DNA of 63,114 bases, filler included, from Lophium mytilinum (Eukaryota): assembly GCA_010093605.1 (NCBI GenBank). It is 6 parts of 3 records of this genome, joined end to end, with 100 filler letters (N's around TTAATTAATTAA, not from the genome) between each part and the next. Parts side by side here need not be neighbours in the genome. Positions count along the whole stretch, not along the records: positions 1 to 14,574 come from MU004186.1; 5 more parts are not named here. One strand, given 5' to 3'. Below, piece by piece: positions 3,801 through 58,760 of this stretch. Within the stretch, counting starts at the first letter, position 1. Every line of letters begins with the position of its first letter. Under the pieces are notes generated by a model. The model was not told the origin of the DNA. It ran no database searches and saw nothing but the letters and a program-made list of their open reading frames with translations. A program made the translations under genes and the position numbers.

Positions 3801-5299
3801 AAAGTAAGAAAAAAAAGAAAGAGTAAATTAGGCGGGCGCTAAAGTAATGCAGGGTATAGTTATATAAACTATATATTATAGAGACCTACTAGTCCTGCCT
3901 AAGGTAAAATATATATATAGTATNNNNNNNNNNNNNNNNNNNNNNNNNNNNNNNNNNNNNNNNNNNNNNNNNNNNNNNNNNNNNNNNNNNNNNNNNNNNN
4001 NNNNNNNNNNNNNNNNNNNNNNNNNNNNNNNNNNNNNNNNNNNNNNNNNNNNNNNNNNNNNNNNNNNNNNNNNNNNNNNNNNNNNNNNNNNNNNNNNNNN
4101 NNNNNNNNNNNNNNNNNNNNNNNNNNNNNNNNNNNNNNNNNNNNNNNNNNNNNNNNNNNNNNNNNNNNNNNNNNNNNNNNNNNNNNNNNNNNNNNNNNNN
4201 NNNNNNNNNNNNNNNNNNNNNNNNNNNNNNNNNNNNNNNNNNNNNNNNNNNNNNNNNNNNNNNNNNNNNNNNNNNNNNNNNNNNNNNNNNNNNNNNNNNN
4301 NNNNNNNNNNNNNNNNNNNNNNNNNNNNNNNNNNNNNNNNNNNNNNNNNNNNNNNNNNNNNNNNNNNNNNNNNNNNNNNNNNNNNNNNNNNNNNNNNNNN
4401 NNNNNNNNNNNNNNNNNNNNNNNNNNNNNNNNNNNNNNNNNNNNNNNNNNNNNNNNNNNNNNNNNNNNNNNNNNNNNNNNNNNNNNNNNNNNNNNNNNNN
4501 NNNNNNNNNNNNNNNNNNNNNNNNNNNNNNNNNNNNNNNNNNNNNNNNNNNNNNNNNNNNNNNNNNNNNNNNNNNNNNNNNNNNNNNNNNNNNNNNNNNN
4601 NNNNNNNNNNNNNNNNNNNNNNNNNNNNNNNNNNNNNNNNNNNNNNNNNNNNNNNNNNNNNNNNNNNNNNNNNNNNNNNNNNNNNNNNNNNNNNNNNNNN
4701 NNNNNNNNNNNNNNNNNNNNNNNNNNNNNNNNNNNNNNNNNNNNNNNNNNNNNNNNNNNNNNNNNNNNNNNNNNNNNNNNNNNNNNNNNNNNNNNNNNTA
4801 TATACTAATAGTATAGATATAATAGAGTAGTATTAGAATATAATTGCCCTCCCTAACTATATAAACTATAGTAGATAAAACCGCCCCCTATAATATAGAT
4901 AAATAAAATAAATATTATATTATATATAAAATATATAAGGTATAGTTATAGTAGTAAATATTACGCTATATTCTATAGTTAAGTAAGCCGCTATCTAGAG
5001 GCTAAATATAAACTAGAAGATTTTAAGGGTATAAAGTATACTACTACTATAGAGTAGTACTAACTATTAAAGAGTAGAGAATAGAACACAAGTAAGAAAT
5101 TAGAATAGTAAAAAGTTAGTAGTACTAAGTAAGTAGGTGTAAACTAATAGTAAGAAAAGTAGTCCTAATTAGAACTATTAGAAAGAAAAAGAAAAAGATA
5201 TTAAGAGATGCTAAACTAAATCTAAAAAGTAGAGTAAGGGCCTCTATAGAAAGCCTTTCTATAAAAACCCTACTAGTTATACCTTACTATTAGACTTCT

Positions 5300-8200
5300 C
5301 TAGCGCTATACTAGTCCCCTCTAATTTACTACTATTTTCTTTACTATTAGAGTTAGTATCTACACCTAATGCCGCGGGCAGTTAGCTAATATTAGAATTA
5401 TTCTTCCGCCTGCGTAGGTCTATTTTTAGTCTAGTAGAGTTTAAAGACTTCTATATAGTAGCTTTCTTCTTAGTAGCCTTTCTTTTATACTAAGGGCGCT
5501 ATTTAGTAATCTCTTTCTCTATTATATACTTATATAGATAATATATAAGGAATTTAGATATAGAGTCTTTCTTAGCTACTTTATTCTTCTTTATAGTAGG
5601 CTTCTTTTTTACGCCTTAGCGCTTCTAACTCTTATTAGTATTACTAGAGGATATAGTCTTTAAGGTTAGCTATAAGGCTCCTTCTATAAATTCTAGCGGG
5701 TTATCTAAGTTACTACTATAGTTACTGTTACACTTAAAGGCAACTTTAGATAGTATAGTAGTAAAATCTAGGTAATTATTAAGATACCCCCTATTTTACT
5801 TATTAGTCTTAGACGGGATATTCTCTATATTAATGTTAGGGGTTTTAATATTCTTCTTATTCTACTTATTACTCTTAGTCTAGTTATTATCTATATTAAT
5901 ATTAGCTTTTAGTAGTAAATAAAAAACTAAATTATCTATAGAATTCTATAAGAAGATAGTAGAAATTCTGCGCTACCTCTTCTTCTATATATTAGGTAAT
6001 AAGATAGAGTCTATAGAAGGGGTTCTAATAAGGCGTCTATTAAAGGTACTAAGAGGGCTAGAAGATAGAGTTAAAGTAAGTTAATAGGCGGAAGTAGAAG
6101 CTACTATAATAGTTAGTACTTAAGTAATATAATAGGTAATGCTAAAGGGCCCTAGTAGAAAGGCTTTCTAAAAAGGCCCTAGAATAAATTCTTATCTATA
6201 TACTTTATAAGAAATAAAGTATTATTTTTATACTCTTTACCTTTAGAGTTATTACTATTTAGCCTACTAAAAGGGTTATTACTATCTATATTACTAAAAA
6301 TAGCGGGCACTTAATATAAAGAGTTATACTCCGGCCTATATTAATAGATAAAAGAGCTATAAGTATTTCTAGTAGTGCTTTTTATAGGGGTAGGCATATT
6401 AGATTTAGTAGAATCTAAGTCTTTAACTATAATAGTAGACTTAGAGTTAAGCTTATACTTCTTAATAATAGCTACTAGTATAGTACTAGCTTTACGCTTC
6501 TACTTTAAAGCTTTACTATTTTATTACTCTAGCGTCTTTAGCTTTAGCTTTAGGGTAGCTTTTACTATAAAATATAGATTAGTAAAGTATAAAGAGGTAA
6601 GTAGGGCTCTAGTAGAAAGCCTTTCTACTAGAACCTATAAGAGTAAACTTACTACTTACAGGATAATACTTAAGCCTTAAACCTAGCTTATTAATATATA
6701 GTTTCTTAGGCGCTCTACTTATACCCTTCTTCTACTCTTCTTCTAATTCTAATTTAGTAAATTTATACGCTTATTCTTCTTAGAACTTATTACTAAACCT
6801 ACTAGACTAAAAAGTTATATTGCCTTGCATAAGGGTTATTAGAAATATAAGAATATTTTATAGAGAGTTAAAGTACTTAATATATAATTCTACTAGTATA
6901 TTTAAAATATCTAGTTTACCTATAATAAGGCGGGGTATAATACTCTTATTATTATAGGTTATCTATATATACTAGCTATCTAGAGTTAGCTTTTTCTTAA
7001 AGGTTTCCTCTACTTTAATCTAGTTAGTATTTAATATAGTAGCAAGACTAGAAAGCGCTATCTATACCTAGCGTAAGAGAGTAAAGGTATTAAATATATC
7101 CTAGATAAAGAATATAGTTACTATAATAGTAAACTTCTAGCTAATCCTATATAAATGCGCTATTATCTACTTCTTAATCTAAATAGAGTCTATAGGGTTA
7201 AAAAGATATATATTATAATAAGTAGACTATAGATTAAGCCTAGCTCTATTAGCCTAGTAACTAGTAATAAGGATCTTTACTTTAGAGTTAGGGTTATTAA
7301 ATAATAAAATAAGGTTATTCTAGTTAGTAGTAGAGAGATTAGAGGCTAATATATAAGTATCTATTTTATAATAGTTAATAATCTTAGTAAGAATTATTTA
7401 CTTATTTAGATAGTTAGTCTAGATAATAACCTTCTCTATATACTTAATAATATTATTGGCTAAATAGTATAGTAGTATAGCTACTTTAGAGGCATTATAA
7501 ATAAAAAGGGCAATAATATAATAAAAGAGTGTAGACTTTACTTTAAAGTCTTTCTAATTAGGGTTAGTTTAGATATTCTTATTCCGGGTAATTTACTTTA
7601 TTATACCTTATAAAACGTCTATTTTCTTTAACTAGTAACTGCTATTATTCTTAAGAGGAATAATTTTTAGGCTATTCTTAATCTTATTACCCTTTAAATC
7701 TAAGACCTTCTCTTATAGATATACTATTATAGCGCGCTTAGAGTAGACTAAAAATAGTGTAGTACTTATAAGATTAAGAGTATATATAGAGCATATATTA
7801 AATATATAAATGCGCTAGCCTATATAGTTCTTAGTAGAAACTATTAATAACTTAAGATAGCTTAGTAATTTATTAGTATAGATAATATAGCCTAGTTTTA
7901 TTAGCTATAGCTTAATTACTTGCGTAACTAACTATAAAAGTAATCCTCTAATTTAGGTAGTAGAATTAGTAGAATTATTTAGGTATATAGAAGGGTATAA
8001 GTAAGTAATTATATACTTACTAAAAATTAAGCATAAATAAAGCCCCTATATAATGCTAGAGAAATATTAGAAAATTAAAGTAAATAAGAGGAGAGATAAG
8101 AGCCCTAGCTAGAAGCCTTTCTACTAGGGCCCTTTATATAATAACTTACAAGTTAAATAAAGGTAGAATAAAATTTTTAAAAGCCTTATATATACTAGAA

Positions 8201-11030
8201 AATTATACCTAAATAGTTATTAGAAAGCTTAAATAGATTATTAGTACCTAGAATAAACTTAGCTTTACTAGGTTTTAAGTAGTATATATAGAATTATAGA
8301 TACTTATCTCTTAGTTCTATAAAAGATATATAAGTAGGTATATTAGTAATACCTATATATAGTAGGGTTCTACTATAGAGTATAGTAAAGTCTAAGTAAA
8401 GCTATAAAGTAGTTAGATAGAGGTTTACTTAGTTGCTTTTAATAAGCTAGCACTTATCTATAAATTAGACGTTAAAATAGCTACTTAAGAGACCGGGCTA
8501 GGTAGAGCTTAAATAATATTTAATCTAGTTCTTTAGCTTAGTAAGATTATTATTACTATACTACTTTAATGCGGGCTAGGGACTATGCTAACTAGCTATT
8601 ACCTAATAGCTGGCAATTATAATACTTTTAGTATTTGCCTTATTTTTAGTATTAAATAAGGGATAGTCCCTAGTTAAGGTATTATATAGAAATATAGCGC
8701 TATAGAAAGTAACTTAGCCCTTTAATAAATAGATATAGAGCTTAAGTTTAGAACTAAACTTTATAAGTTTATTTACTATTTAGTATACTAAAATAGAAGG
8801 TATAAGAAAAAGAAAGGGCTTTACTAGCTCTAAGTCTTTCTTATCTATAACTTTACGCTAGCGCTTAGTAATAAGCTATAATTAAATTAGTAGATACTAA
8901 AAGAAACTATTAGAGAAGTAGTAGAAAGGCTTTNNNNNNNNNNNNNNNNNNNNNNNNNNNNNNNNNNNNNNNNNNNNNNNNNNNNNNNNNNNNNNNNNNN
9001 NNNNNNNNNNNNNNNNNNNNNNNNNNNNNNNNNNNNNNNNNNNNNNNNNNNNNNNNNNNNNNNNNNNNNNNNNNNNNNNNNNNNNNNNNNNNNNNNNNNN
9101 NNNNNNNNNNNNNNNNNNNNNNNNNNNNNNNNNNNNNNNNNNNNNNNNNNNNNNNNNNNNNNNNNNNNNNNNNNNNNNNNNNNNNNNNNNNNNNNNNNNN
9201 NNNNNNNNNNNNNNNNNNNNNNNNNNNNNNNNNNNNNNNNNNNNNNNNNNNNNNNNNNNNNNNNNNNNNNNNNNNNNNNNNNNNNNNNNNNNNNNNNNNN
9301 NNNNNNNNNNNNNNNNNNNNNNNNNNNNNNNNNNNNNNNNNNNNNNNNNNNNNNNNNNNNNNNNNNNNNNNNNNNNNNNNNNNNNNNNNNNNNNNNNNNN
9401 NNNNNNNNGTGCGCTTAGTATATATAATTACTAACTTAAGCTTCTATTTTATAGTGCCGGTAATATACTTAGTGCTAGTAACATTAATATTATCTTTCTT
9501 CTTATTAACTAGGTTTATAGTAATTTCCTCTTTAGATAACCCCTAGATAGAGTTATCTGCGTTAACCTCTATATTAATAGCCGCGAGTTCCTCCTTAGTA
9601 AAATAAGAGGGCGACTACTAATAGAGAGGCCTAGAAGGGCCTTAATAGAAAGGCTTTCTATTAATATTCTTACTACTATAAGTAATAGTTTTAGCTAGAG
9701 TCTTAGGTACTAGTACTAGACTAAGCTTTATTTTTTAAAGAATATTCTATATCTTAATTTAGTTCTTAGTATAGGTAGTTCTACTAGCTTAAGATAGGCT
9801 ACTCTTAAATTCTATATTTTTCTTTAATTTAAAGAAGATTCTAAGCGCTTTATTATTAGTAATATTAGCGTAGTTATATAAAAACCTACTAAACCGCTTC
9901 TAGTAGTAATTAAAGCATTAACTAATAAATTAAGCTACCTAATCTATAGGTTTATAGTTATCTATCTTAGGCTAAGAAGTAGTATATCGCTATAGATTAT
10001 GCAACTCGCTAGTCTTAAAAGCATTTAGAATAGTAGTAAAACTAGCCTCTTAATTCTAACTATATATAGCGCGCTTTAGGTCTAAATATCTATCCTTATA
10101 CTTATTCTAAATTACTTAGAAATTAGGCTTAGCTAGAATTACTTTAAGTTCTACTTTTATTTAACTATAAAGCTTAGCTAACTTTATTCTACTAATATAT
10201 AGTATATTTACTAAGGCCTATAACTTCTCTAACTCTTTATCTTTTCTACTACTAGTAACTAGCGCTTAAAGCTTCTCTTACTCTTTATTAGAGTTCTTAG
10301 GGATATTAGAGTTATTACTATAGTTATTACTATCTAGATAAACTACTTTACTATTTACTAATATAAGCGTCTCTAGATCTATTATAGTAGCCGGCTAATT
10401 GCGCTTTAAATTAATATAGGCATTAACCCCTAATTTAATAACTAGTAGAGAGGTAGAATATAGATCTTCTAGTATTTTAGAAGAAGTAGATTATTTCTTA
10501 TAGCTATCTACTAGGTTAGTTATAGATAATATGCGTAGGAATATAACCTTTACTACTACTTTACTAGGGTCTCTATTACTTAAGGTATTTATAGCTAGCC
10601 TATTAATATATTAGCTTATCTTAAATAATAGAAAAAAGAAGGCAGGTAAAGAGCCCTAGTAGAAAGGCTTTCTACTAAGACCCTTTATACTATACCGGGT
10701 ATTTTTAGTATTATTATTTTCTTAATATTTTCTACTACCGCATCTTTAAAATTAAGGTAGACTAATCTACTAAGACTAGTAAAGGGCCCTAGCAGGAAGC
10801 CTTTCTATAATAATTCTTATAATACGCTTACCTTACTCTACTCTTAGAGAAATTATAATAGAATAAACCTATTAGTAGAATTAGCTATAATATAACTTAA
10901 TTTTACCTACTAGATAGTAAACTTACTAAAAGGCTTAACTGCTAGCTAAAAAGATGCCTAAAATAGGCTAATTGCAGCTCTAATATAGCTAGAAAGCTGC
11001 TAACTATTATCTAGTAAGTAAGAAACTAGC
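5300..11030 (-). pseudogene. SNF2/SWI2-family (SF2) helicase/ATPase relic, intron-containing, copy A
   Basis: RIP-reversed minus-strand translation gives motif II FVDECQLIK (8432-8464), motif III LYSGTP (~8363-8380), SKVATLL...EKVII(W)TNYP (~7405-7495) and motifs V-VI FNDPNSKVKILITSY..AGLNLQ..C..V.LFDP.....EKQ.IARLYRIGQ (~7135-7305). Motif I lies in the gap here but is visible in copies B and C. Confidence 0.88.
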
Positions 11031-11142
11031 GCGCAACTATTCCGCAGGTAGCTAGATAAGTAGAAGTAATAGAGGTATAGTAGTATAGAAGAAGAGGTTA
11101 GTATAGAAGTAAGAAAGTTAAAGCTACTAGGTAGTAAATAAG

Positions 11143-11173
11143 TTTATAGGCGGCCGGGCTAATAGCCGCCGGC
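11143..11173 (-). promoter_or_regulatory. Putative SNF2-gene promoter: GC-rich inverted repeat directly upstream of TATAAA
   Basis: Copy B 45303-45336 reads tttata-g-GCGGCCGG-gcta-a-tagc-cg-CCGGCCGC; the same structure is at 58867-58900. On the minus strand the hairpin is followed by TATAAA and a CT-rich leader. Confidence 0.5.
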
Positions 11174-11379
11174 TACTAAGATGCTAAGTCTTTAATAGTA
11201 AACTACTTAAGTTAACTCTTAAGATTAATATACTAGCTATATATTATATAAGGTTAAAATATTATAGGTATAAATATATTAGCGTTTTACTTAATTTTAC
11301 TAATATATAAGTATTTATAGTTAATCTATAATACTATACTATATATTATCTAGTTCTAGTAATATAGTACTACGCTAAA

Positions 11380-14300
11380 ATAGGTTAATAGAATATCGCG
11401 TGTTATTATATAACTATTTACCTATAGTATAAGAGTCTTACTAGAAAGCCTTTCTACTAGGGCCCTTTACTACTTATATTAAAAACGCCTATTATTACCT
11501 CTCTTTTTATATATATTACTACTATATACCTACTAGATAAGTATTTACGTACTATATAAGAGCCTAGCTAGAAGCCTTTCTACTAACGCCCTTTATATCT
11601 TATACTAATTACTTTACTACCTTTATTATTAATAACTCTTCTTTATAACGCCGCCCCTACTAGTCTACTTACTAATACTTAACTCTATATACTTCTTAGA
11701 ACTCTTCTACTTAAGCCTTATTCTTCTAGGCCTCTTACTCTAAGTTCTCTAAGTCCTCTATTTCTAAGCTATAGTTACCTAAACTCTCTTTATACTTATA
11801 CTTTTTATCTAATAACTAACTACCTATATCCCCCTCTTACTCTTTCTATATTACTAAATAATTCTAGAATTCTTTAATTATTAGAATTCTGCCTAAATAA
11901 ACCCTTAGGCTATTTAGTATATAGTACTTAAACCTAAGCTAAATATATTTTAGATTAACTTAACCCCTAGGGCCTATAGTATTATCCTCTATTATTATTA
12001 TCTTTAACTTTTTTAGGCTTTCCTAGGTTATATTCTATACTTTCTTTACAACTATATCTATGCTAAGATTAACTACCCCCCCTTAAGCCTATTCTTTAAT
12101 ATACTAGCTTAGTTAGGCTATTTTATAGTAGTAGCTATTTAGTAGTTATATATAGATCTACTATATATTTATAATTATATCTCTTCCCCTAATATTATCT
12201 TATATATCTTTAGAGTTATTTAGTTTAGCTTAACGCGTAGTTAAAATTTTATTATTATTATATTTTAAAAGAACCTAGAGTAATAATGCGGCTCTTACTT
12301 ATAGATTATTAAGGAATTATTCTACTATTTTTAGTAATGCTTTATTTCTAATTATTGTATTTAATCTTCGCAATTTTATATAGAAGGGACTATTATTCTA
12401 TTTTTAAGTTTCTATAGCTAGATCTATAATATTAAATAGCGGCTAGACTTAATTAATCTAGTATCTAGTTAAGTATATTAGATAATTTATATTACTATTT
12501 CTAGCTATATTCTATATATAGGCGTAGCTTACTATAAGTTCTAACTTTCTATATAGCCTTATAAGTATATTAAAATAAAGCGTAACTATAGATTTTTATA
12601 GAATACTCTTAAGAAATTAGTTATATAGTTCTTTACTCTTCTATTATATTTTAGTATTTCTATCTTCTTCTATATACTATCTACTTAGAAGCTTATATAT
12701 ATTAGTATAGTATACCTTAATAATAAGCGCAGCTGCCTTACCTATCTATAGTAGTGCTAATTGCTAATCTTTTTATACTCTAGTTCTATTTTCGCGTTAA
12801 ATAGCTAGCGTATACTATACTATAATACTATACTATAGATACTATATCTCTATATCCTTTTTAGTAAAAGATATCTAGATTTAAGCTTTAGTAAATATAG
12901 CTTAGAATTAATTCCTAAGGCTAGCTTATAGTTAATTAACGCCTTAAGGGCTAAGTTATAGAGGCGTTATTATCTAATCTAAGTACTCTAACTTTAGCTA
13001 ACCTATACTATACTTCTTAAGGGAGTCTAATAATCTAAGGCTATATAAGGTTATAGAATTCTAGAGGTTTTTTTAATTTATCTACTCTTTTTTCTATAGT
13101 ATAGATAATTAAGTAGAATTACTATATCTAGTAGTAATTTATATAAGGCGGATATAAAGAGATGCTAAATAACTATTTACTAGCTATTTATCTAGTATTA
13201 CTATATACCTAGTATTACACCCGGGGGTAACCTAAAGAGATAGTACCTAGAAAAGAAATACCTAGTAATTAAGGTTTATAATAGTAAAGGTATTAACTTC
13301 TTTTATAGAAAGAATCTAGTAGAGGTAATAAGGCTTACTACTATTATCTAGCCTATCCTTTATAGTAAATTTAGGACTTATACTTTCTTTAAGTTACTTA
13401 AGTATAGTAAAAAGTACTTAGAACTTAGTTTAAACCCTATAGAATAAGTATCTATCTCTCTAGAGTATAGTATAGTAGCGTTAGAAAATAGTAGTAAGAC
13501 TATTCTAAAGCTATTTTCTTTTTAATAATTCTCTAGAGCTACCTGCCGCTTTAAACTACTGCTTAATTATTTTAGTTAAGAATATAAGAGCTTCTAGTTA
13601 AGTATTATAAAAGGGCGTAATATTCTTAATAGATAACTTAAGTATAATCTTATTACTATTATAGATTTTATTATATACTATACTACTAATATAGCTATAG
13701 TTACCTACTTAAAGCTCTACTATTAGAGATAACGCGCCCTAGGTAAGATAGTAGAGGTATAATATTATATAAATCTTTTCTTTTCCGCTATTATAGAAGT
13801 AAGTAGTCTAGTAGTTATTATAGCTAGTTTTATATAGAAAGGTAACCCCGGTATCTAGCTAATTAGTAGTTAGAATATCTTTATATCTATAGTTAACCTA
13901 TATTCCCTTATCTAGTATATTAATTAGGTTTTTATTAAAAGTAGTAGTTAAAGTATATAGTAGCTAATCCCTACTTTAAATTATACTTAAGGACTTATAT
14001 ACTATTTTTAGATTATAATCTAAGACTACTAGAAATACTCCTTTAAATAAATCTTTAGGTATAGTATCTATTCCTATAAAGTTTTCTATATTATAAAGAA
14101 CTTAGTTCTAGAATTCTTAGAGTTAATACTATAGAATTATATACTTAGTATTAATATAAGAGTCTCTAGATAATATTATATATTTTTCTTTCTTAATACT
14201 TACTTTACTCTATATAATATTAAAACTATATAGTATATACTACTACTTATTAGATGTTAGAGTATACTTTACTACAGGTAAGATAATATTATTAAGCTAA

Positions 14301-14574: not shown

Positions 14575-14674
14575 NNNNNNNNNNNNNNNNNNNNNNNNNN
14601 NNNNNNNNNNNNNNNNNNTTAATTAATTAANNNNNNNNNNNNNNNNNNNNNNNNNNNNNNNNNNNNNNNNNNNN

Positions 14675-38717: not shown

Positions 38718-38817
38718 NNNNNNNNNNNNNNNNNNNNNNNNNNNNNNNNNNNNNNNNNNNNTTAATTAATTAANNNNNNNNNNNNNNNNNNNNNNNNNNN
38801 NNNNNNNNNNNNNNNNN

Positions 38818-41384: not shown

Positions 41385-41484
41385 NNNNNNNNNNNNNNNN
41401 NNNNNNNNNNNNNNNNNNNNNNNNNNNNTTAATTAATTAANNNNNNNNNNNNNNNNNNNNNNNNNNNNNNNNNNNNNNNNNNNN

Positions 41485-44400
41485 CTTATTAGGGTAGTTG
41501 GTCTAGATAATAACCTTCTCTATACGCTTAATAATATTATTAGCTAAATAGTATAGTAGTGTAGCTACTTTAGGGGCATTATAAATAAAAAGGGCGATAA
41601 TATAATAAAAGGGTGCGGACTTTACTTTAAAGTCTTTCTAATTAGGGTTAGTTTAGATATTCTTATTCCGGGCAATTTACTTTATTATGCCTTATAAAAC
41701 GTCTATTTCCTTTAACTAGTAACCGCTATTATTCTTAAGAGGGATAATTTTTAGGCCGTTCTTAATCTTATTGCCCTCTAAATCTAAGACCTTCTCTTAC
41801 GGATATACTATTATAGCGCGCTTAAAGTAGACTAAAAATAGCGTAGTACTTATAAGGTTAAGAGTACGTATAGAGCATGCATTAAATATATAGGTACGCT
41901 AGCCTACGCAGTTCTTAGTAGAAACTATTAATAACTTAAGGTAGCTTAGTAATTTATTAGTATAGATAATATGGCCTAGTTTTATAGGCTATAGCTTAAT
42001 TACTTACGTAACTAACCGCGGAAGTAATCCTCTAATTTAGGTAGTAGAATTAGTAGAATTATTTGGGTATATAGAAGGGTATAAGTAAGTAATTATATAC
42101 TTGCTAAAAATTAAGCGCAAATAAAGCCCCTGTATAATTCTAGAGAAATATTAGAAAATTAAAGTAAATAAGAGGAGAGATAAGGGCCCTAGCTAGAAGC
42201 CTTTCTACTAGGGCCCTTTATGTAATAACTTACGGGTTAAAGGAAGGTAGAATAAAATTTTTAAAAGCCTTGCGTGTATACTAGAAAATTACACCTAAAT
42301 AGTTGTTAGGAAGCTTAAATAGATTATTAGTACCCGGAATAAACTTGGCTTTACCGGGTATTAAGCGGTACGTGCGGAATTATAGATACTTATCTTTTAG
42401 TTCTATAAAAGATATATAAGCAGGTATATTAGTAATGCCTATATATAGCGGGGTTCTACTATAGAGTATAGTAAAGTCTAAGTAAAGCTATAACGCGGTT
42501 AGGTAGAGGTTTACTTAGTTACTTTTAATAAGCTAGCACTTATTTATAAATTGGACATTAAAACAGCTACTTAAAAAACTAGGCTAGGTAGAGCTTAGGC
42601 GATATTTAACCTAGTTCTTTAGCTTAGTAAGATTATTATTACTATACTACTTTAATGCGGGCTAGGGACCGTGCCGACTAGCTATTACCTAATAGCTGGC
42701 GATTATAATACTCTTAGCATTTACCTTATTTTTAGTATTAAATAAGGGATGGTCCCTAGTTAAGGTATTATATAGAAACGTGGCGCTATAGAAAGCAACT
42801 TAGCCCTTTAATAAATAGATATAGAGCTTAAGTTTAGAACTAAACTTTATAAGTTTATTTGCTGTTTAGTATACTAAAACGGGAGGCATAAGAAAAAGAA
42901 AGGGCTTTGCCGGCCCGGGGTCTTTCTTATCCGCAACTTTGCGCTGGCGCTTAGTAATAAGCTATAATTAAATTAGTAGATGCTAAGAGAAACTATTAGG
43001 GGGGTAGTAGGAAGGCTTTCTATTAATACTCTTTAAAGAGAAATTACTTATATATCTAATAAGGGTAGCTATTAAAAATATCTTTCTAATGCTAACCTTA
43101 TCTACAATTAAAGCCCTACTAAGAAAGCCTTTCTATATAATATAGTATATATAGTAAGCCCCGGTAATCTACTACTACCTTAAGTAAATATTACTATTTA
43201 TTATAATAAGGCGGGGTTCCCGATAGTTATAAATATGTAGGGCCTTTATTACTTCTTTTAGGTTATCTAGCTAATAGGCTTTATTAGTTATTAGAAGGTG
43301 GAGTGTACTCTATGTTATAAGATCTGCCGCAGTTAGTATAGTAAAGGGGATAATATTCTTTACATTAATAGCGGTAGCCCTTATATTAGCCTCTATATCT
43401 TAGGCATATTTAATACTATCTAGATTAGCGTACTTATTCTTATTAAGATCTGCAGCGCGCATATTTAGGTGCTGTTTAACGGCATATATAAAATCTTCTA
43501 CTATCTTTCTAATTACCTAATATGCGTTGTATTAAAACTTTAATAAGTTCTAGTTAATTATTGCTCTAGTGCGCTTAGTATATATAATTACTAACTTAAG
43601 CTCCTATTTTATGGTGCCGGTAATATACTTAGTGCTAGTAATATTAATATTACCTTTCTTCTTATTAACTAGGTTTATAGTAATTTCCTCTTTAGATAAC
43701 CCCTAGATAGGGTTATCTGCGTTAACCTCTATATTAATGGCCGCGAGTTCCTCCTTAGTAAAATAAGAGGGCGACTGCCAACGGGGAGGCCTAGAAGGGC
43801 CTTAACGGGAAGGCTTTCTATTAATATTCTTACTACTATAAGTAATAGTTTTAGCCGGGGTCTTAGGTGCCGGTGCTAGACTAAGCTTTATTTTTTAAAG
43901 AATATTCTATATCTTAATTTAGTTCTTAGTATAGGTAGTTCTACTAGCTTAAGACGGGCCACTCTTAAATTCTATATTTTTCTTTAATTTAAAGAAGATT
44001 CTAAGCGCTTTATTATTAGTAATATTAGCGCGGTTATATAAAAACCTACTAAACCGCTTCTAGTAGTAATTAAAGTATTAACTAATAAATTAAGCTACCT
44101 AATCTACGGGTTTATAGTTATCTATCTTAGGCTAAGGAGTAGTATATTGCTGTAGATTATGCAACTTACTAGTCTTAAAAGCGTTTAGGATAGTAGTAAA
44201 ACTAGCCCCTTAATTCTAACTATATATAGCGCGCTTTAGGTCTAAATACCCTTTCTTATACTTATTCTAAATTGCTTAGAAATTAGGCTTAGCTAGAATT
44301 GCTTTAAGTTCTACTTTTATTTAACTATAAAGCTTAGCTAACTTTATTCTGCTAGTATATAGCGTGTTTACTAAGGCCTATAACTTCTCTAACTCTTTAT

Positions 44401-45200
44401 CTCTTCTACTACTAGTAACTAGCGCTTAAATCTTCTCTTACTTTTTATTAGAGTTCTTAGGGACATTAGAGTTGTTACTATAGTTATTACTATCTAGATA
44501 AACTACTTTGCTATTTACTAATGCGAGTGTCTCCGGATCTATTGCAGTAGCCGGCTAATTGCGCTTTAAATTGACATGGGCATTAACCCTTAATTTAGTA
44601 ACTAGTAGGGAGGTAGAATTTAGATCTTCTAGCACTTTAGAAGAAGTGGACTATTTCTTATAGCTATCTACTAGGTTAGTTGTAGGTAATATGCGCAGGG
44701 ATGCAACCTTTACTACTGCTTTACTAGGGTCCCTATTACTTAAGGTATTTATAGCTAGCCTATTAATGTATTAGCTTATCTTAAATAATAGAAGAAAGGA
44801 GGCAGGCAAAGGGCCCTAGTAGGAAGGCTTTCTACTAAGACCCTTTACACTATGCCGGGTATTTTTAGTATTATTATTTTCTTAACATTTTCTGCCGCCG
44901 CATCTTTAAAATTAAGGTAGACTAATCTACTAAGACTAGTAAAGGGCCCTAGTAGAAAGCCTTTCTATAATAATTCTTATAATACGCTTACCTTACTCTA
45001 CTCTTAGAGAAATTGCGATAGAATAAACCTATTAGCAGAATTAGCTATAATATAACTTAATTTTACCTACTAGATAGTAAACTTACTAAAAGGCTTAACC
45101 GCTAGCTAAAAACACGCCTAAAATAAGCTAATTACGGCTCTAACGTAGCTAGAAAGCTGCTAACTATCGTCTAGTAAGTAAGAAACTAGCGCGCAACTAT
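41485..45200 (-). pseudogene. SNF2-family helicase relic, copy B (N-terminal and ATPase part)
   Basis: LKWWQITG (Q-motif-like, ~43162-43185), GGALI(V/A)DEVGIGK motif I (43082-43120), intron 42983-43051, KPFLFLMPP.LV.Q.ANEL motif Ia (~42852-42908), IIIASYQ, DECQ, SGTP. Confidence 0.9.
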
Positions 45201-45539
45201 TCCGCAGGTAGCTAGATAAGTGGAAGTAATAGGGGTGCGGTAGTATAGAAGGAGAGGTTAGTATAGGAGTAAGAAAGTTAAAGCTGCTAGGCGGTGGATA
45301 AGTTTATAGGCGGCCGGGCTAATAGCCGCCGGCCGCTAAGACGCTAAGCCTTTAACGGTAAACTACTTAAGTTAACTCTTAAGGTTAATGTAATAGCTAT
45401 ATATTATATAAGGTTAAAATATTACGGGTGTAAATATATTAGTGTTTTACTTAATTTTACTAATATATAAATATTTGCGGTTAATCTATAATACTATACT
45501 ACGTATTACCTAGTTCTAGTAATACAGCACTACGCTAAG

Positions 45540-48500
45540 ATAGGTTAATAGAATATTGCGTGTTATTATATAACTATTTGCCTATAGTATAAGGGTCTTA
45601 CTAGAAAGCCTTCCTGCTAGGGCCCTTTACTACTTATATTAAGCATGCCTATTATTGCCTCTCTTCTTATATATATTACTGCTATGCACCTACTAGATAA
45701 GTATTTACGTACTATATAAAAGCCTAGCTAGAAGCCTTTCTACTAACGCCCTTTATATCTTATACTAATTACTTTACTATCTTCCTTATTAATAATTCTT
45801 CTTTATAACGCTGCCCCTGCTAGTCTACCTATTAATACTTAAATCTATATGCTCCTTAGAACTCTTCTACTTAAGCCTTATTTTTCTAGGCCTCTTACCC
45901 TAAGTCCTCTAAGTCCTCTATTTCTAAGCTATAGTTACCTAAACTCTCTTTATACTTATACTCTTTATCTAATAACTAACTACTTATATCCCCCTCTTAC
46001 TTCTTCTATATTACTAAATAATTCTAGAATTCTTTAATTATTAGAATTCTGCCTAAATAAGCCCTTGGGCTATTTAGTATATAGTGCTTAAACCTAAGCT
46101 AGATATATTTTAAATTAACTTAACCCCTAGGGCCTATAATGTTATCCTCTATTATTATTATCTTTAACTTTCCTAGGCTTCCCTAGGTTATATTCTATAC
46201 TTCCTTTGCAACTACGTCTATACTAAGGTTAACTGCCCCCCCTTAAGCCTGTTCTTTAATATATTAGCTTAGTTGGGCTACCTTATAGTAGTAGCTATTT
46301 AGTAGTCGTATATAGATCTACTATATATTTATAATTGCATCTCTTTCCCTAATATTATCTTATGTATCTTTAGAGTTATTTTATTTAGCTTAACGCGTAG
46401 TTAAAATTTTATTGTTGTTGTATCTTAGAAGAACCTAGAGTAATAAGGCGGCTCTTACTTATAGATTATTAAGGAATTATTCTACTGTTTTTAGTGACGC
46501 TTTGTTTCTAATTATTATATTTAATCTTTATAATTTTATGTAGAAGGGACTATTGTTCTATTTTTAAGTTTCTGCAGCTAGATCCGTAATATTAAATAGC
46601 GGCTAGACTTAATTAATCTAGCGTCTAGTTAAGTGCCTTAGATAATTTATATTACTATTTCTAGCTATATTTTATATATAGGCGTAGCTTACTATAAGTT
46701 CTAACTTTCTATATAGCTTTATAAGTATGTTAGAATAAAGCGTAACTATAGATCTATTTAGAATACTCTTAAGAAATTAGTTGCGTAGTTCTTTACTCTC
46801 CTATTATATTTTAGTATTTCTATCTTCTCCTATATACTGTCTGCTTAGAAGCTTGTATATATTAGTATAGTATGCCTTAATAATAAGCGTAGCTGCCTTA
46901 CCTATCTATAGCGGTGCTAATTGCTAATCTTTTTACACTTTAGTTCTATTTTTGCGTTAAATAGCTAGCGTATACTATGCTGTAATACTATACTATAGAT
47001 ACTGCATCTCTATATCCTCCCTAGTAAGAGATACCTAGATCTAAGCTTTAGTAAACATAGCTTGGAATTAATTTCTAAGGCCGGCTTGCAGTTAATTAAC
47101 GCCTTAAGGGCTAAGTTGTGGGGGCGTTGTTATCTAATCTAAGTACTCTAACTTTAGCTAAGCTATGCTATACTTCTTAAGGAAGTCTAATAATCTAAGG
47201 CTATATAAGGTTATAGGATTCCGGGGGTCTTTTTAATTTATCTACTCTTTTTTCTATAGTACAGATAATTAAGTAGGATTACTACATCTAGTAGTAATTT
47301 ATGCAAGGCGGATATAAAGAAATGCTAAATAACTATTTACTAGCTATTTATCTAGTATTACTATATGCCTAGCATTACGCCCGGGGGTAACCTAAAGAGA
47401 TAGTACCTAGAAAAGAAATACCTAGTAATTAAGGTTTANNNNNNNNNNNNNNNNNNNNNNNNNNNNNNNNNNNNNNNNNNNNNNNNNNNNNNNNNNNNNN
47501 NNNNNNNNNNNNNNNNNNNNNNNNNNNNNNNNNNNNNNNNNNNNNNNNNNNNNNNNNNNNNNNNNNNNNNNNNNNNNNNNNNNNNNNNNNNNNNNNNNNN
47601 NNNNNNNNNNNNNNNNNNNNNNNNNNNNNNNNNNNNNNNNNNNNNNNNNNNNNNNNNNNNNNNNNNNNNNNNNNNNNNNNNNNNNNNNNNNNNNNNNNNN
47701 NNNNNNNNNNNNNNNNNNNNNNNNNNNNNNNNNNNNNNNNNNNNNNNNNNNNNNNNNNNNNNNNNNNNNNNNNNNNNNNNNNNNNNNNNNNNNNNNNNNN
47801 NNNNNNNNNNNNNNNNNNNNNNNNNNNNNNNNNNNNNNNNNNNNNNNNNNNNNNNNNNNNNNNNNNNNNNNNNNNNNNNNNNNNNNNNAGATAACGCGCC
47901 CTAGGTAAGATAGTAGGGGTATAATATTATATAAATCTTTTCTTTTCTACTATTATAGAAGTAAGTGGCCTAGTAGTTATTATAGCTAGTTTTACATAGA
48001 AGGGTAACCCCGGTATCTAGCTAATTAGTAGTTAGAACATTTTTATATCTATAGTTAATCTATATTCCCTTATCTAGTATATTAATTAGGTTTTTATTAA
48101 AAGTAGTAGTTAAAGTATATAGTAGCTAATCCCTGCTTTAAATTATACTTAAGAACTTATATACTATTTTTAGATTATAATCTAAGACTACTAGGAATAC
48201 TTCTTTAAATAAATCTTTAGGTATAGTGTCTATTCCTATAAAGTTTTCTGCGTTATAAAGAACTTAGTTCTAGAATTCTTAGAGTTAATACTATAGAATT
48301 ATATACTTAGTATTAATATAAGAGTCTCTAGATAATATTATATATTTTTCTTTCTTAACACTTACTTTACCCTATATAATATTAAAACTGTATAGTATAT
48401 ACTACTACTTATTAGGTATTAGAGTATGCTTTACTGCAGGTAAGATAATATTATTAAGCTAAGCTACTTGCATTATATCTAGTAGATGTAAAGTGTTGCC

Positions 48501-50928
48501 CTTCTACTTATTTAGTGTTGGCATCTAGGGGAAAAATACGTAAGTTTTAAATTAATGCTTATATCTATACTCTATGCAAAGCTGCTTTATTATATAGAGC
48601 TTATAGCCGCGTATTATAATGCGTTAGTTTTAAGTAATGCTTTAAAGAAAGGATAGTTATAGAGATAGTAAGAAGTATAAATTATAGGCCGCTAAAGTAG
48701 AGATGCTAATAATAACGCTATTAATATTATACACTTGCCGGATTTTAATCTCTTTATTTACTATAAAGCTAGCTTCGGACCTTATAAAACTAAGCCTTAG
48801 AGTTTCTATCTTACTAGTTTCTCCGCTTAATATTAATTTCTATAGGACATTATTAAAGTTATTAGGATTATCCTCTCTCTATAATAGCTCTAGTTGGCTT
48901 ATTAAATAGAAGGCTGTATTAGCTGTAATAGGCTCTTATTAGGAGGGAAGGTTCTAAGCTAGAAGAAAGCTAGTAACTTAGCTAAGGGATCTACTCTAAG
49001 GAACTATTATATAGTTACTTGCTATATTATAATATTAGCTACTATATTATCTAAATAGAAAGAGTTAAGATATATAGTAAGTATACTAGACTTCTAACGC
49101 TAATTAGATTATACTTACTGCATGTAGAGTATTTACTAATAGATTATTATGCCTATATATATTAGCTTTATATAAACTATAGGGCTTATAATACTTACCT
49201 ATTAGGGTCTATCTTATCTATAACTTTGTCTATAATCTTACTGTTGCCTTTACTATTTAAGGCTGTATTATCTACCCTACTGCCTTAATTCTCTAGCGTA
49301 ACTTTATTAAGTAAACCCGGTAATTTATCTATAGTATCTTGCTATCCTTACATATATATACCTTCTCTACCCTCTTTAACTTTATTATCTAATACCTTAT
49401 CTACATCTGCACCTGCTTCTACCTTATTCTTAAGTTGGGTAAATTCCTCTTCTATAACCTTAGTTACTAGCGTTAGGTAGAGAGATAATAAGGCAGCGTA
49501 CTACTCTATCTAAACCTAACTGTTATTATGCGCTAGTCGCATAAACCGACTTATATTAGCTAGCATTTCCTTCTTATCTATTTATTCTATAGCGTTTATT
49601 CTAGAGAGCACTTCTACGGCCTTATTTTATTGCGCTAAGAATAATTCCGCTGTAATCTCTTTATTAGTTATTTATGTAAGTACATAGAGCAGTAATATAG
49701 TAATAAGGGCTAGTATTTAGCGTTATATTATTAGTTCTAGTTGTGCAGAAGTAGGAGCCGCTATAGTTTATTAAGCGTGTAAACTCGCGCGTAGTATTAT
49801 AGCTATCTATAGAGTATTCTAGAGGGTAAGGATAGTATATACGCCTGTATATATATATAGTGTAGCTATAGGTTTAAGAAACGCTTTATAGAGATAGTAT
49901 ATAGCGGGTAGAACCTAGCCTAGAGCTCTATTATTATTATTTGCGGCTTGCTAAGATATTTCTATACTAGAAGGTAGTAATAGAGAGGGCAACACCTCTC
50001 TAGTATCTAGAGGCGGTAGTAATATAGGTATATAAGGAGACAACGCGGAAGATGCAGGTAATAGTAACTCTAATACTGCCTCTTTTACTTCTTTATCTGC
50101 TTAGGCTACTTCTTTATTTACTTTACTTTCTTTAGCCGCTTCTTCTTCTTCTTTAACTGCTACTCCCTTAATAGTCTATATAATAGTATACTTACTACTA
50201 TTACTCTAATTTTACTCTATAGCTTCTATTAATTCTATATTGCTTTAAATTTTAGGTATATATTAGGCCGCTCTTAACTTACTAGAGCGTATACTACTAC
50301 TAGTAGACTGCTAGGTATAAGAAAGTTATATTAGTTAAGTAGGTTAAGAGGTTAGAGAAGCGAGAGAATAAGTACTACTATAAGTAGCCCGCCCTAGAGT
50401 AGAATATTAGGTGGGTTTAGTAGATAGAGGAGGAGCGGTAGAATAGATACTACTATAGGTAGACTGCTATAGAGAAGTATATTATATAGGTTGCGTAGGT
50501 TAGNNNNNNNNNNNNNNNNNNNNNNNNNNNNNNNNNNNNNNNNNNNNTTAATTAATTAANNNNNNNNNNNNNNNNNNNNNNNNNNNNNNNNNNNNNNNNN
50601 NNNTAAAAGATATACTAATTATAAGTTATATAATAGTTTTCTCTAAAGGCTTCTAAGGTGCAATTAGTTGTTAAAAGGGCGTGGGCGCAGGGCGGGTAGA
50701 ATAAGGGGCCCTAATATTTATACTAGAAAGACCTCTAGGGTTTTTAAAGATAATTAGAAACGGATCTAGGATAGAAGTAGAAGTAGGCTTACTAGCCTCT
50801 TCTGCTGCAGCTATTTAGTCTACAGCCCTCTTCTTTTTATTTCTCTTGCGTTGGTTTAAATCCACTATTAAATGTAATTTAGCTGCTTTTTACTCTTCTT
50901 TATTCTAGTACTTTCGGGGGCGTCCTAT
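45540..50928 (-). pseudogene. Long (~1500 aa or more) unknown-function gene with an N-terminal AT-hook
   Basis: ATA (probable ATG) at 50928-50926, then GRPRKY.NKEE.KAAK (GRPRK 50925-50911). Acidic/Pro-rich linker ~49950-50250. Plain intron GTAAGT..GCTAAT..TAG ~49153-49198. Globular core YVFFP.MP...WLDDIVLPAVK...QH.PHSF (~48385-48545). Joining across two gaps is inferred. Confidence 0.6.
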
Positions 50929-51499
50929 ACTAACTACTAGGTATAGTAGTAAGGGGGATAATAGTTTAGAATATAGAGCTAAGGAGCAGAAAGCGGTTAG
51001 GGAGTGTAATTAGTTAAAAATAAGAATTTATTAATATTCTTGTTATAGAGCTTACCCTGCCTAACCTATTTTAATATCCCTTACGGATACAGCCACTCGG
51101 TTAAGGTTGCTAGGGAAGGGCCCTAGTAGGAAGGCTTCCTGCAGTAGCCCTATTAATTACTTTATCTATAAATATTATATAAACTATATTCTACCCTTTA
51201 CTTTATATATTTTATTTAATGCGGCTGAAATTTCTATTATATAAAAATACTATCTAGCAGCAACCTGTGCTAAGGCAAGGCTATTATAACGCGAAACTCT
51301 TTCTATTATATCTATTACCCTCTATAGGTACCTACTACTAGGACTTCGCCTTTTCTATAATGCTTTAAATTTAATTGCATATACTATATATAGTATTATA
51401 GCTCTATTATAGTATTTTAATATCTAGAAGTTATTATATATAGCGGTAGAAGGCTGCTTAATTATAGGGCTATACTCTACGCTGCTAGCCGCCCTCTTT

Positions 51500-52100: not shown

Positions 52101-52523
52101 AAGGTTAATTTTCTCTATATTAAACTTGCTTCTCTCTACCTAACTCTAACCCTCTAGCCCCTATAATATATAATTATTATTAAGTAGTATAGCTTAGCTT
52201 CTATATAAATCTAAATAGACTATATCTACTTAGTATATCTAGTATTAGCCTAGCGCTATTATAGTATATACTAGTACTACTTAAAATATTCTAAGTATTA
52301 TTAGTATATATAAAAATAAAGATATATATTTAATATTTAAATAGCCTAACCCTTATTAAATTAGCGTCCCTATATAAAATATACGCTAGTAATACTAAAT
52401 TATATAGAGAACTCTTAGAAACTAACCCTTTTTATTACTACTGTTGTTTACTACCGTTATTTACTACTATTACCTAATGATACTAGTAATAATATTATTA
52501 CTAGCTACCATTGTCATTACAGT

Positions 52524-58500: not shown

Positions 58501-58760
58501 TAGTAAAGAGCCCTAGCAGGAAGCCTTTCTATAATAATTCTTATAATATACTTACCTTACTCTACTCTTAGAGAAATTATAATAGAATAAACCTATTAGT
58601 AGAATTAGCTATAATATAACTTAATTTTACCTGCTAGATAGTAAACTTACTAAAAGGCTTAACTGCTAGCTAAAAAGACGCCTAAAATAGGCTAATTACG
58701 GCTCTAATATAGCTAGAAAGCTGCTAACTATTATCTAGTAAGTAAGAAACTAGCGCGCAA
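52524..58760 (-). pseudogene. SNF2-family helicase relic, copy C (motifs I-VI all present)
   Basis: Motif I ~55925-55962, II ~55365-55395, III ctc tat agt agg acc ccg (~55292-55309), IV ~54340-54365, V-VI ~54060-54230. Confidence 0.88.
55027..55059. promoter_or_regulatory. Best-preserved copy of the dispersed 33-bp palindrome (function unknown)
   Basis: gggccctagctagaag-c-cttcctgctagggccc, 14 of 16 arm positions pair. It lies inside a minus-strand GTAAGT...CTAAC...TAG intron. Confidence 0.85.

Follow-up and report, generated by a model that had tools for sequence, protein, structure and literature searches.

The SNF2 Repeat and Its Palindromes

The DNA under study (hereafter the window) is a stretch of 63,114 nt from the fungus Lophium mytilinum (assembly GCA_010093605.1), in which a gene of SNF2 helicase type lies on the minus strand of a repeat of ~8–10 kb. 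Three copies of this repeat, with 91–95% identity, are found, that is, A (5588–13374), B (41485–47438 and onward), and C (52514–61013). A palindrome of 33 nt, composed of two 16-nt arms around a single central base (16-1-16), recurs in and beside the gene. The signs of repeat-induced point mutation (RIP) extend across the whole window (TA/AT 1.6–2.1, (CA+TG)/(AC+GT) 0.07–0.37, GC 17–34%), and every copy of the SNF2 gene in the window has been destroyed by it.

A preliminary description of this DNA listed ten such palindromes in copy A between positions 5238 and 11591, at non-homologous sites and with a central base of either C or G. All ten were recovered, both by direct reading and by a scan with a RIP-degenerate 33-mer, and the central base is indeed mixed. 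The sites are 5238–5270, 6147–6179, 6604–6636, 8100–8132, 8913–8933, 9637–9669, 10651–10683, 10784–10816, 11433–11465, and 11559–11591. The fifth is only the left part of a palindrome, cut by a run of Ns (8934–9408); it is complete in B (42999–43031), as had been noted, and also in C (55842–55874). In the neighbouring pairs 10651/10784 and 11433/11559, the spacers show no relationship to each other (score 14 vs. 16.7 for shuffled sequence), so these pairs are not segmental duplicates.

In total, the scan gave 32 matches at ≥27/33 positions, 28 of which are members of the family and four of which are weak (622, 23774, 26651, and 32487). Homologous sites carry seven palindromes in B and ten in C, one of the latter doubled at an assembly gap. 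In detail, a 711-bp direct repeat of copy C (56056–56766 vs. 56777–57487, 94% identity) spans a gap of 10 Ns and doubles the palindrome of site 9637; it is probably an assembly artefact. Further palindromes outside the span 5238–11591 are located at 715–747, at 51118–51150 (in the region of copy C but outside the homology of A and C), and, as a half-copy within an exon, at B 43122–43134 and C 55965–55977 (core positions).

The least mutated arms read GGGCCCTAGCAGGAAG. A 13-nt core, ARRAAGSCTTYYT, occurs 22 times against 0.15 expected, a number reached by 0 out of 100 shuffles, and these shuffle counts rule out chance or low complexity as the source of the palindrome. The RIP-reversed consensus proposed earlier, with TGG/CCA, had to be abandoned, since it has no match within three mismatches; the best-kept arms have TAGC/GCTA instead (one match at two mismatches).

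Every palindrome seen belongs to, or flanks, a single gene family, to which the motif appears restricted as far as can be seen. Between 14.7 and 41 kb, where other RIPed repeats lie, only three matches of chance level (27–28/33) occur. Rfam gave no match at gathering thresholds in the window or in the homologous locus L001 described below. The core was also not accepted as a heat-shock element or STAT-like site, because the spacing does not fit and the window arms are without a second half-site. In the open-access literature, a scope that excludes the original sequence lists of introner-like elements, no description of this palindrome or of the introns of this SNF2 family was found.

The SNF2 Helicase Gene

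By the likeness of its translations to intact proteins, the minus-strand gene is a RIP-destroyed Rad5/16-like SNF2 helicase. Three of its exons were delimited. The exon with SNF2 motif I (VSIRKI, from GLGKT) is placed at 43052–43420 (−) in copy B and contains the exonic half-palindrome, whose core codes for KGFL. The next exon, at 42234–42961 (−), includes motifs Ia–III (KPFLFLMPP.. and the DEAH region) and is aligned in one frame by tblastn with the homologues P0008, P0046, and P0043. The RIP-degraded C-lobe exon with motifs IV–VI follows (6653–8055 (−) in A; 53580–54982 in C), and the tblastn alignment is continuous across it. The homologues thus meet motifs I, Ia, II–III, and IV–VI in order along the gene.

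The stretch around motif I is almost the same in two of the copies. B 43100–43563 and C 55943–56406, which include motif I and the half-palindrome, are identical at 299/300 and 164/164 positions, whereas the remaining repeat shows ~93% identity; this points to recent conversion or a collapsed assembly.

Searches with the degraded sequences themselves were of little help. Pfam found no families in the RIPed translations (the three minus-strand frames of both B and C, plus the long exon in A and C), and a PDB search by phmmer with one frame of B 41485–44200 gave chance matches only. In the long exon (C 54982–53580), RIP-shaped helicase motifs can be discerned by eye (ANRARLNL, LFNP, and YRIRXK), and its sole PDB match is Rad54 (E 0.054). 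A profile was therefore built from the A, B, and C translations of the C-lobe exon and searched against 1.84 billion representatives at E ≤ 0.001. It retrieved 66 proteins, 16 of which were scanned with Pfam. Helicase_C and/or SNF2-rel_dom, the two domains by which membership in the SNF2 helicase family was judged, are present in 15 of these and absent from one (P0026); the SNF2 assignment of the preliminary description therefore stands. Named members are a "putative DNA repair helicase rad5,16" of Aspergillus ibericus (XP_025575603.1) and a protein of Gyalolechia (KAI4174406.1), and the remaining ones come mostly from metagenome or Logan contigs.

The homologues cover only the conserved part of the gene. 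The N-terminal exon of L001, P0073, and P0043 gave no alignment upstream of ~B 43420, a search with the RIPed N-lobe region returned no proteins, and a search from P0001 found no longer relatives, its near relatives being P0001 itself only. Five upstream and three downstream palindrome sites lie outside the covered part. After the homology ends, one minus-strand frame of 6564–5290 has relatively few stops over a further pair of candidate exons with many K, N, and S residues, which may be a C-terminal extension or a second gene.

Two Introns Supported by Homologues

Two introns of the conserved core could be verified by homologue alignment, and both carry the palindrome; the core is otherwise continuous. 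The earlier statement that the palindrome sits in almost every intron therefore holds for 2/2 verifiable introns, but the palindrome is not confined to introns.

In the case of site 8100, residues 5–227 of P0008 align with B 42916–42245 and residues 230 onward with the DNA from B 42141, in a different frame. The ~94 nt between residues 227 and 230 correspond to a segment GTAAGT..CTAAT/C..TAG with the palindrome at 42184 (A 8100, C 55027). This frame-shifting intron of 94 nt is located at 8056–8149 (−) in A, 42140–42233 in B, and 54983–55076 in C, and its removal restores the SNF2 frame in B, as had been claimed. It is absent from all four homologues that span the site: P0002, P0007, and P0008 have single open frames, and the DNA of L001 is continuous.

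In the case of site 42999, P0043 needs a gap of 28 residues exactly at the palindrome, between motifs I and Ia. The intron had been given as 43051–42983, which would be 69 nt; the segment that fits is 43051–42962 (−), an in-frame, phase-0 intron of 90 nt (C 55805–55894) with the signals ATAAGT..TACTAAT..TAG. The 5′ site would be a RIPed GTGAGT or GTAAGT, ATAAGT being the RIP product of a GT site preceded by T.

The junctions of this second intron coincide in position and phase with those of the intron at 4214–4304 in L001. In B, the upstream exon ends in ..SIRKIFLIATLIRY and the downstream exon begins with LITKRQRKV..KPFLFLMPP. In L001, ..GLGKTFQVAAYMLH is followed by a GTAAGT intron and the next exon starts with CITERVRKL..KPFLVIVP. 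BLASTP of the flanking exons, which are ~31–33% identical in protein between the two lineages, comes to within four residues of the junction on the upstream side and, on the downstream side, begins with residue 1. Since both junctions are in register, the two introns are orthologous, and the 42999-site intron, shared with so distant an intact homologue, is on this alignment ancient. As a test of recent gain, the pair is divided: the 8100-site intron is missing in 4/4 homologues, with gain and loss unpolarised, and the 42999-site intron is old.

Splice Signals around the Palindromes

The palindrome is self-complementary, and its strand was therefore read from the flanks at 12 sites, with RIP-aware patterns and a 5′ splice site allowed within 31 nt upstream. 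On the minus strand, a 5′ site is found at 8/12 sites (background 0.087, P ~1e-6), a branch point and YAG downstream at 8/12 (background 0.46, not significant), and both signals at 6/12 (background 0.047, P ~7e-6). The respective numbers on the plus strand are 2/12, 2/12, and 1/12. Strict patterns gave 6, 8, and 5 of 12 on the minus strand versus 2, 2, and 1 on the plus strand. The claim that the copies mostly lie between splice signals is thus upheld for the 5′ site, but both signals are present at only half of the sites.

Three of the introns proposed earlier (8149–8056, 6195–6104, and 6652–6565) fit the GT..branch point..AG signals. Apart from the 8100-site intron, these are a 92-nt candidate around palindrome 6147–6179 (6104–6195 (−); C 53031–53122) with GTAAGA (intact in C), TACTAAC, and TAG, and an 88-nt candidate around palindrome 6604–6636 (6565–6652 (−); C 53492–53579) with GTAAGT..TACTAAT..TAG, which starts directly after the end of the helicase-C exon. 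Around palindrome 10651–10683 (B 44811, C 58375), a candidate of 91 nt (10600–10690 (−)) has CTAAT..TAG downstream and a weak 5′ site (GTGTAA in B). Under the RIP-aware pattern, sites 5238 and 10651 have no 5′ splice site; under the strict pattern, the former has GTAAGG, 17 nt upstream on the minus strand, and would belong to an intron of 5287–5175 or shorter with an ambiguous 3′ end.

The other sites have partial signals. The palindrome at 9637 (B 43797; C 56640 and 57361) has a GTAAGA overlapping its outer arm, the one at 10784 (B 44944, C 58508) a GTAAGC 15 nt upstream, the one at 11433 (B 45593, C 59157) a RIPed 5′ site, ATAAGT, 12 nt upstream, and the one at 11559 (B 45719, C 59283) a RIPed ATAAGA upstream. 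At 9637 and 11559, no recognisable branch point and 3′ site were found, and sites 51118 and 715 show neither a 5′ nor a 3′ signal.

The well-formed introns measure 94, 88, 92, 90, ~91, and 88 nt, and the one of L001 91 nt. The palindrome begins 7–20 nt after the 5′ splice site.

Palindromes in an Un-RIPed Homologue

A metagenome scan with an alignment of four proteins retrieved three loci, L001, L002, and L003. L001 (8432 bp, GC 49%) encodes a product 43% identical to P0008. Its intron at 4214–4304 (91 nt, GTAAGT..TTAAC..TAG) contains AGGAAGGCTTCCT, within a 16-1-16 palindrome, GGCAATTTTCAGGAAG-G-CTTCCTAAAAATTTCC, in which 14/16 arm positions are complementary. The inner CAGGAAG-S-CTTCCT of this palindrome (core AGGAAG-G-CTTCCT) is that of the window, and the outer arms differ on both sides.

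Four additional copies are found in L001, at 1346, 2401, 5458, and 7210. The first is upstream of the gene, with a possible 91-nt frame GTAAAC..CAG around it, the second is ~540 nt before the start codon, and the last is ~270 nt after the stop. The copy at 5458 (5446–5469) is a full palindrome within an exon, coding for HFSEGFLKKL. It aligns to P0008 without a gap and is therefore not an insertion; it would be either a short conversion tract from an intron copy or the result of selection for the motif. Matches to the core at ≤2 mismatches number four in L001 against 0.14 expected, and none of 200 shuffles reaches four. The comparison with un-RIPed homologues that the preliminary description called for thus has a double outcome: the motif is kept in the orthologous intron, with outer arms altered on both sides, but it is also exonic and flanking. 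L002 and L003, which comprise only the C-terminal part, have no palindrome of this kind.

The SNF2 frame of L001 is continuous except for an in-frame stop at ~5799 (IAD*VVKRKEK), which may indicate a pseudogene or a sequencing error. Upstream of the gene, at 1493–1990, there are 206-nt inverted repeats, 82% complementary and 86 nt apart. Downstream, at 8042–8251, a 12-nt tandem array is accompanied by a different palindrome with 32-nt arms (8183–8251).

RNA Folding and Conservation of the Arms

In the best-kept introns of the window, the palindrome is predicted to form an RNA hairpin of 15–16 bp, with −27.3 and −28.5 kcal/mol (z −3.8 and −3.1). The complementarity extends ~2 nt past the 33-mer and includes none of the three splice signals (5′ site, branch point, and 3′ site).

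The arms were aligned from 13 window and five L001 copies. Pairing is found in 79.2% of the arm cells, versus 71.9% in shuffled alignments (0/500) and 38–60% when the partner is slid, and 11/16 pairs change on both sides. Palindromy is kept across the lineages with six arm positions altered on both sides. No variation is seen in the inner 7 bp of each arm, and both lineages have an identical 15-nt core, whereas the outer arms have changed on both sides. Informative among these changes are the between-lineage transversions at arm positions 8–9 (AG in the window, TT in L001, plus their partners), which amount to one lineage split and not to many independent events. Copies within a lineage are more alike than the orthologous copy of the other lineage.

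Comparison with Known Intron Families

The introner-like elements (ILEs) of Dothideomycete fungi are portrayed, in the parts of PMC3609843 that review van der Burgt et al. (2012), as about twice the length of regular introns, with stable structures and compensatory changes; passages of PMC4457414 also treat them. The palindromic introns resemble ILEs, as characterized in those parts of PMC3609843, in being spliceosomal introns with standard signals (the two introns supported by homologue alignment have a canonical 5′ site, branch point, and 3′ site), in their predicted hairpins, in a possible link to intron gain, and in a presumably fast decay outside the structured part. On the contrary, ILEs are there near-identical over their whole length and occur in hundreds of unrelated genes. 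Here only the 33-nt palindrome is shared, and among the copies of the window and L001 no whole-intron near-identity in unrelated genes was seen; the copies are found within a single gene family or flanking it, one has an orthologue in a distant lineage, and some are exonic.

The same-gene intron duplications (SGDs) of fungi, in the sections of PMC3609843 on them, are similar in that a gene has several related introns without segmental duplication of exons. The difference is that SGD introns are there ordinary in length and folding energy and few per gene, whereas here up to about ten, long and hairpin-bearing, would be present.

A closer likeness is offered by the symmetric "sister" introns and stwintrons of Hypoxylaceae, for which the relevant passages of Fekete et al. 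(2021; PMC8469720) give a length of ~93 nt, a central palindrome TTTCTAGAAA, and no target-site duplication. Canonical introns of ~93 nt, a central palindrome, a symmetry capable of forming double-stranded RNA, the lack of target-site duplications, and integration at new positions are the points in common with what those passages report. According to them, however, the inverted repeats of Hypoxylaceae are 45–55 nt long and reach the intron ends, and the copies occur in numerous genes of a single species. The present symmetry extends over ~33–37 nt, with the splice sites outside it, and the sequence is unrelated; no terminal inverted repeats of 45–55 nt spanning the intron ends were found.

Transposon-type introners, in the portions of PMC9860276 and PMC12130899 that concern them, share the feature of short repeated elements with inverted repeats in introns. 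They are there accompanied by target-site duplications, whereas none was seen at the L001 or window copies.

A Dothideomycete, Stagonospora nodorum, provides a parallel for the host gene: its repeat X3X3R8 contains a RIP-degraded tandem cluster of a Rad5/SNF2-like helicase and Rad6, according to the passages on it in Hane and Oliver (2010; PMC3017866). Compared by description only, in both cases RIP has struck a Rad5/SNF2-like helicase gene present in multiple copies (PMC3017866). The difference is that introns or palindromes are not mentioned in the passages on X3X3R8 (PMC3017866).

Origin and Role of the Palindrome

The preliminary description had offered three readings, that is, a DNA site, a splicing hairpin, and the remnant of an introner-like element. 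Both the introner-like and the cis-element readings have gained support, but none is singled out. The one we tentatively prefer is that a small family of ~90-nt spliceosomal introns, located in a multi-copy Rad5/16-like SNF2 gene and introner-like or of the "sister intron" kind, has the palindromes as its conserved hairpin module. This reading gains from the uniform lengths of 88–94 nt, the stable best-kept hairpins, and the intron missing in 4/4 homologues. One old and one lineage-specific intron together suggest copying within their own transcript or locus, with only the hairpin conserved. A hairpin-bearing intron would be copied to new places there, as in same-gene intron duplication, and its flanks would decay afterwards with the hairpin kept. 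Copying of this kind would account for the uniform length and for the fixed place of the palindrome behind the 5′ site. The hairpin could loop out ~35 nt, so that a 90-nt intron would behave like an ordinary one of 55 nt, and a factor may bind the invariant tip, CAGGAAG-S-CTTCCTG.

Several observations weigh against this preference. The similarity between introns is confined to the palindrome: the 3′ flanks score 17.6 versus 15.1 ± 0.7 when shuffled, a value reached by 18/300 sets of random segments of the exon region, so they are about as alike as random segments, in agreement with the earlier statement that the introns are unrelated outside the palindrome. RIP-worn introns have z values of +1.0, −0.8, and −1.6, the first being that of the 42999-site intron, which no longer folds. 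The hairpin of the L001 intron (−11.7 kcal/mol, z −0.85) is not unusually stable; the other L001 intron folds at z +0.2, and this second intron (4481–4654, absent from the window and P0008) is without a palindrome. Because RIP hits both arms alike, GC-to-AU "compensation" among the window copies is not evidence of selection. The comparison with a homologue at the DNA level concerns one locus, L001, and the absence of the 8100-site intron could be a loss in one clade of homologues. The exon copy of L001, the exonic half-copy of the window, and the signal-less palindromes at 51118 and 715 are left unexplained by an intron model, and the L001 copies at 2401 and 7210 have no convincing splice signals.

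It is these copies outside introns (L001 5458, 1346, 2401, and 7210; window 43122, 715, and 51118) that speak for a locus-wide cis element of the SNF2 family, either the DNA site of a dimeric protein or a transcript hairpin recognised by a processing or regulatory factor. Such an element would be spread across the promoter, introns, exons, and downstream region, would be found in introns only where the code must be spared, and would be unrelated to the birth of introns. We consider this a serious contender, albeit an unlikely one on balance. The 16-1-16 geometry is the same in both lineages, with the inner 7 bp of each arm invariant, the core is present in the distant intact homologue not only in the orthologous intron but also in an exon and the flanks, and the closer resemblance of copies within a lineage is as expected if all of them track one binding protein. 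The weak RNA stability in the intact homologue (z −0.85) fits a DNA site better than a structural RNA. On the other hand, such an element does not explain the uniform introns of 88–94 nt, the start of the palindrome 7–20 nt after the 5′ splice site in eight sites, or its presence in a lineage-specific intron. A core of 15 bp would be enough for a dimer, and arms of 16 bp that are palindromic to their ends suggest a hairpin. In addition, no candidate protein is found by Pfam, which gives no families for the RIPed flanks or, in six frames, for the two flanks of L001. A bolder proposal, which we hold to be doubtful, is that one Rad5/16-like SNF2 family is accompanied by inheritance, across distant fungi, by the 16-1-16 hairpin with the tip CAGGAAG-S-CTTCCTG; this hairpin would mark an ancient intron, seed ~90-nt introns in its own gene, and be writable into exons and flanks. 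It would be a self-propagating signal, which the helicase or a partner might recognise in order to regulate the gene's own expression or to copy the signal, and in being gene-specific it would differ from genome-wide introners.

An insertion of miniature mobile DNA, similar to a miniature inverted-repeat transposable element (MITE) with two abutted inverted repeats of 16 bp and surviving in introns and noncoding DNA, is improbable. Short perfect inverted repeats at many non-homologous sites and the mixed orientation of the centre would be in keeping with it. Regular fungal introns are ~50–60 nt, and subtracting ~35–40 nt from the present ones leaves an intron of ordinary size. However, no consistent direct repeat flanks the five un-RIPed L001 copies or the window copies, although a "TA" duplication is indistinguishable from the background in RIPed DNA. 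Two distant lineages share the copy in the motif I/Ia intron by orthology, the exon copy of L001 is not an insertion, and random insertion would hardly place one copy in almost every intron of a single gene. The other RIPed repeats, at 14.7–41 kb, have no copies beyond the chance-level matches. A MITE origin is weakest on account of the missing target-site duplications, the orthologous copy, and the non-inserted exon copy. We regard as very improbable that the palindrome is functionless, made or kept symmetric by DNA mechanics (hairpin-templated repair, arm-to-arm or short-tract conversion), and only a passenger of the gene. Arm-to-arm exchange might produce both the strict symmetry and the flipped central base, and short-tract conversion by an intron copy could have given rise to the exon copy of L001. 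Against this, the 15-nt core is identical despite ~31–33% protein identity in the flanking exons, at which distance neutral intron sequence should be randomised.

Other Features of the Window

The window begins with 15.8 telomere repeats (CCCTAA, 1–95), towards which the gene of copy A is transcribed. They are followed by a 60-nt tandem repeat of 8.2 copies (121–607), after which come the weak palindrome at 622–654 and the one at 715–747, 620 nt from the telomere repeats. Telomere linkage is shown for copy A alone, on the first contig. The preliminary description had called the element subtelomeric as a whole, which is right for A but unsupported for B and C, on separate contigs. Five artificial six-frame-stop linkers, N44-TTAATTAATTAA-N44 (14575–14674, 38718–38817, 41385–41484, 50504–50603, and 61014–61113), join separate contigs, and the order and adjacency of the blocks, including B and C, are therefore not chromosomal; the "tandem" of B and C is an artefact of concatenation.

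Other families of RIPed repeats (15294–16567/34220–35493 and 33059–34126/35489–36557, 93–95% identity) are unrelated to the SNF2 repeat and have no palindrome copies. A de-RIP consensus of the three SNF2 copies was dropped, as it reached a GC content of only 33% and opened no long frames. In a single sequencing run of the same species (X1, possibly RNA), no contig matches copy B at 80% likeness, a result without bearing on expression. The system of the window is a fossil, and no protein is still expressible from its copies.

Significance

As to how new spliceosomal introns arise in fungi, both ILEs and the symmetrical introns known from Hypoxylaceae suggest that hairpins play a part. In the present SNF2 family, two distant relatives share the same core in an orthologous intron, and it recurs in an intron specific to one lineage as well as in an exon, which suggests a hairpin module that is separable from the rest of the intron, and such a module supplies a concrete sequence that can be tested. 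Since the window copies are dead through RIP, their value is as a pointer to intact members of the family. If the palindrome is instead a DNA site, it would be a rare case of a regulatory palindrome that has stayed with one gene family through deep time.

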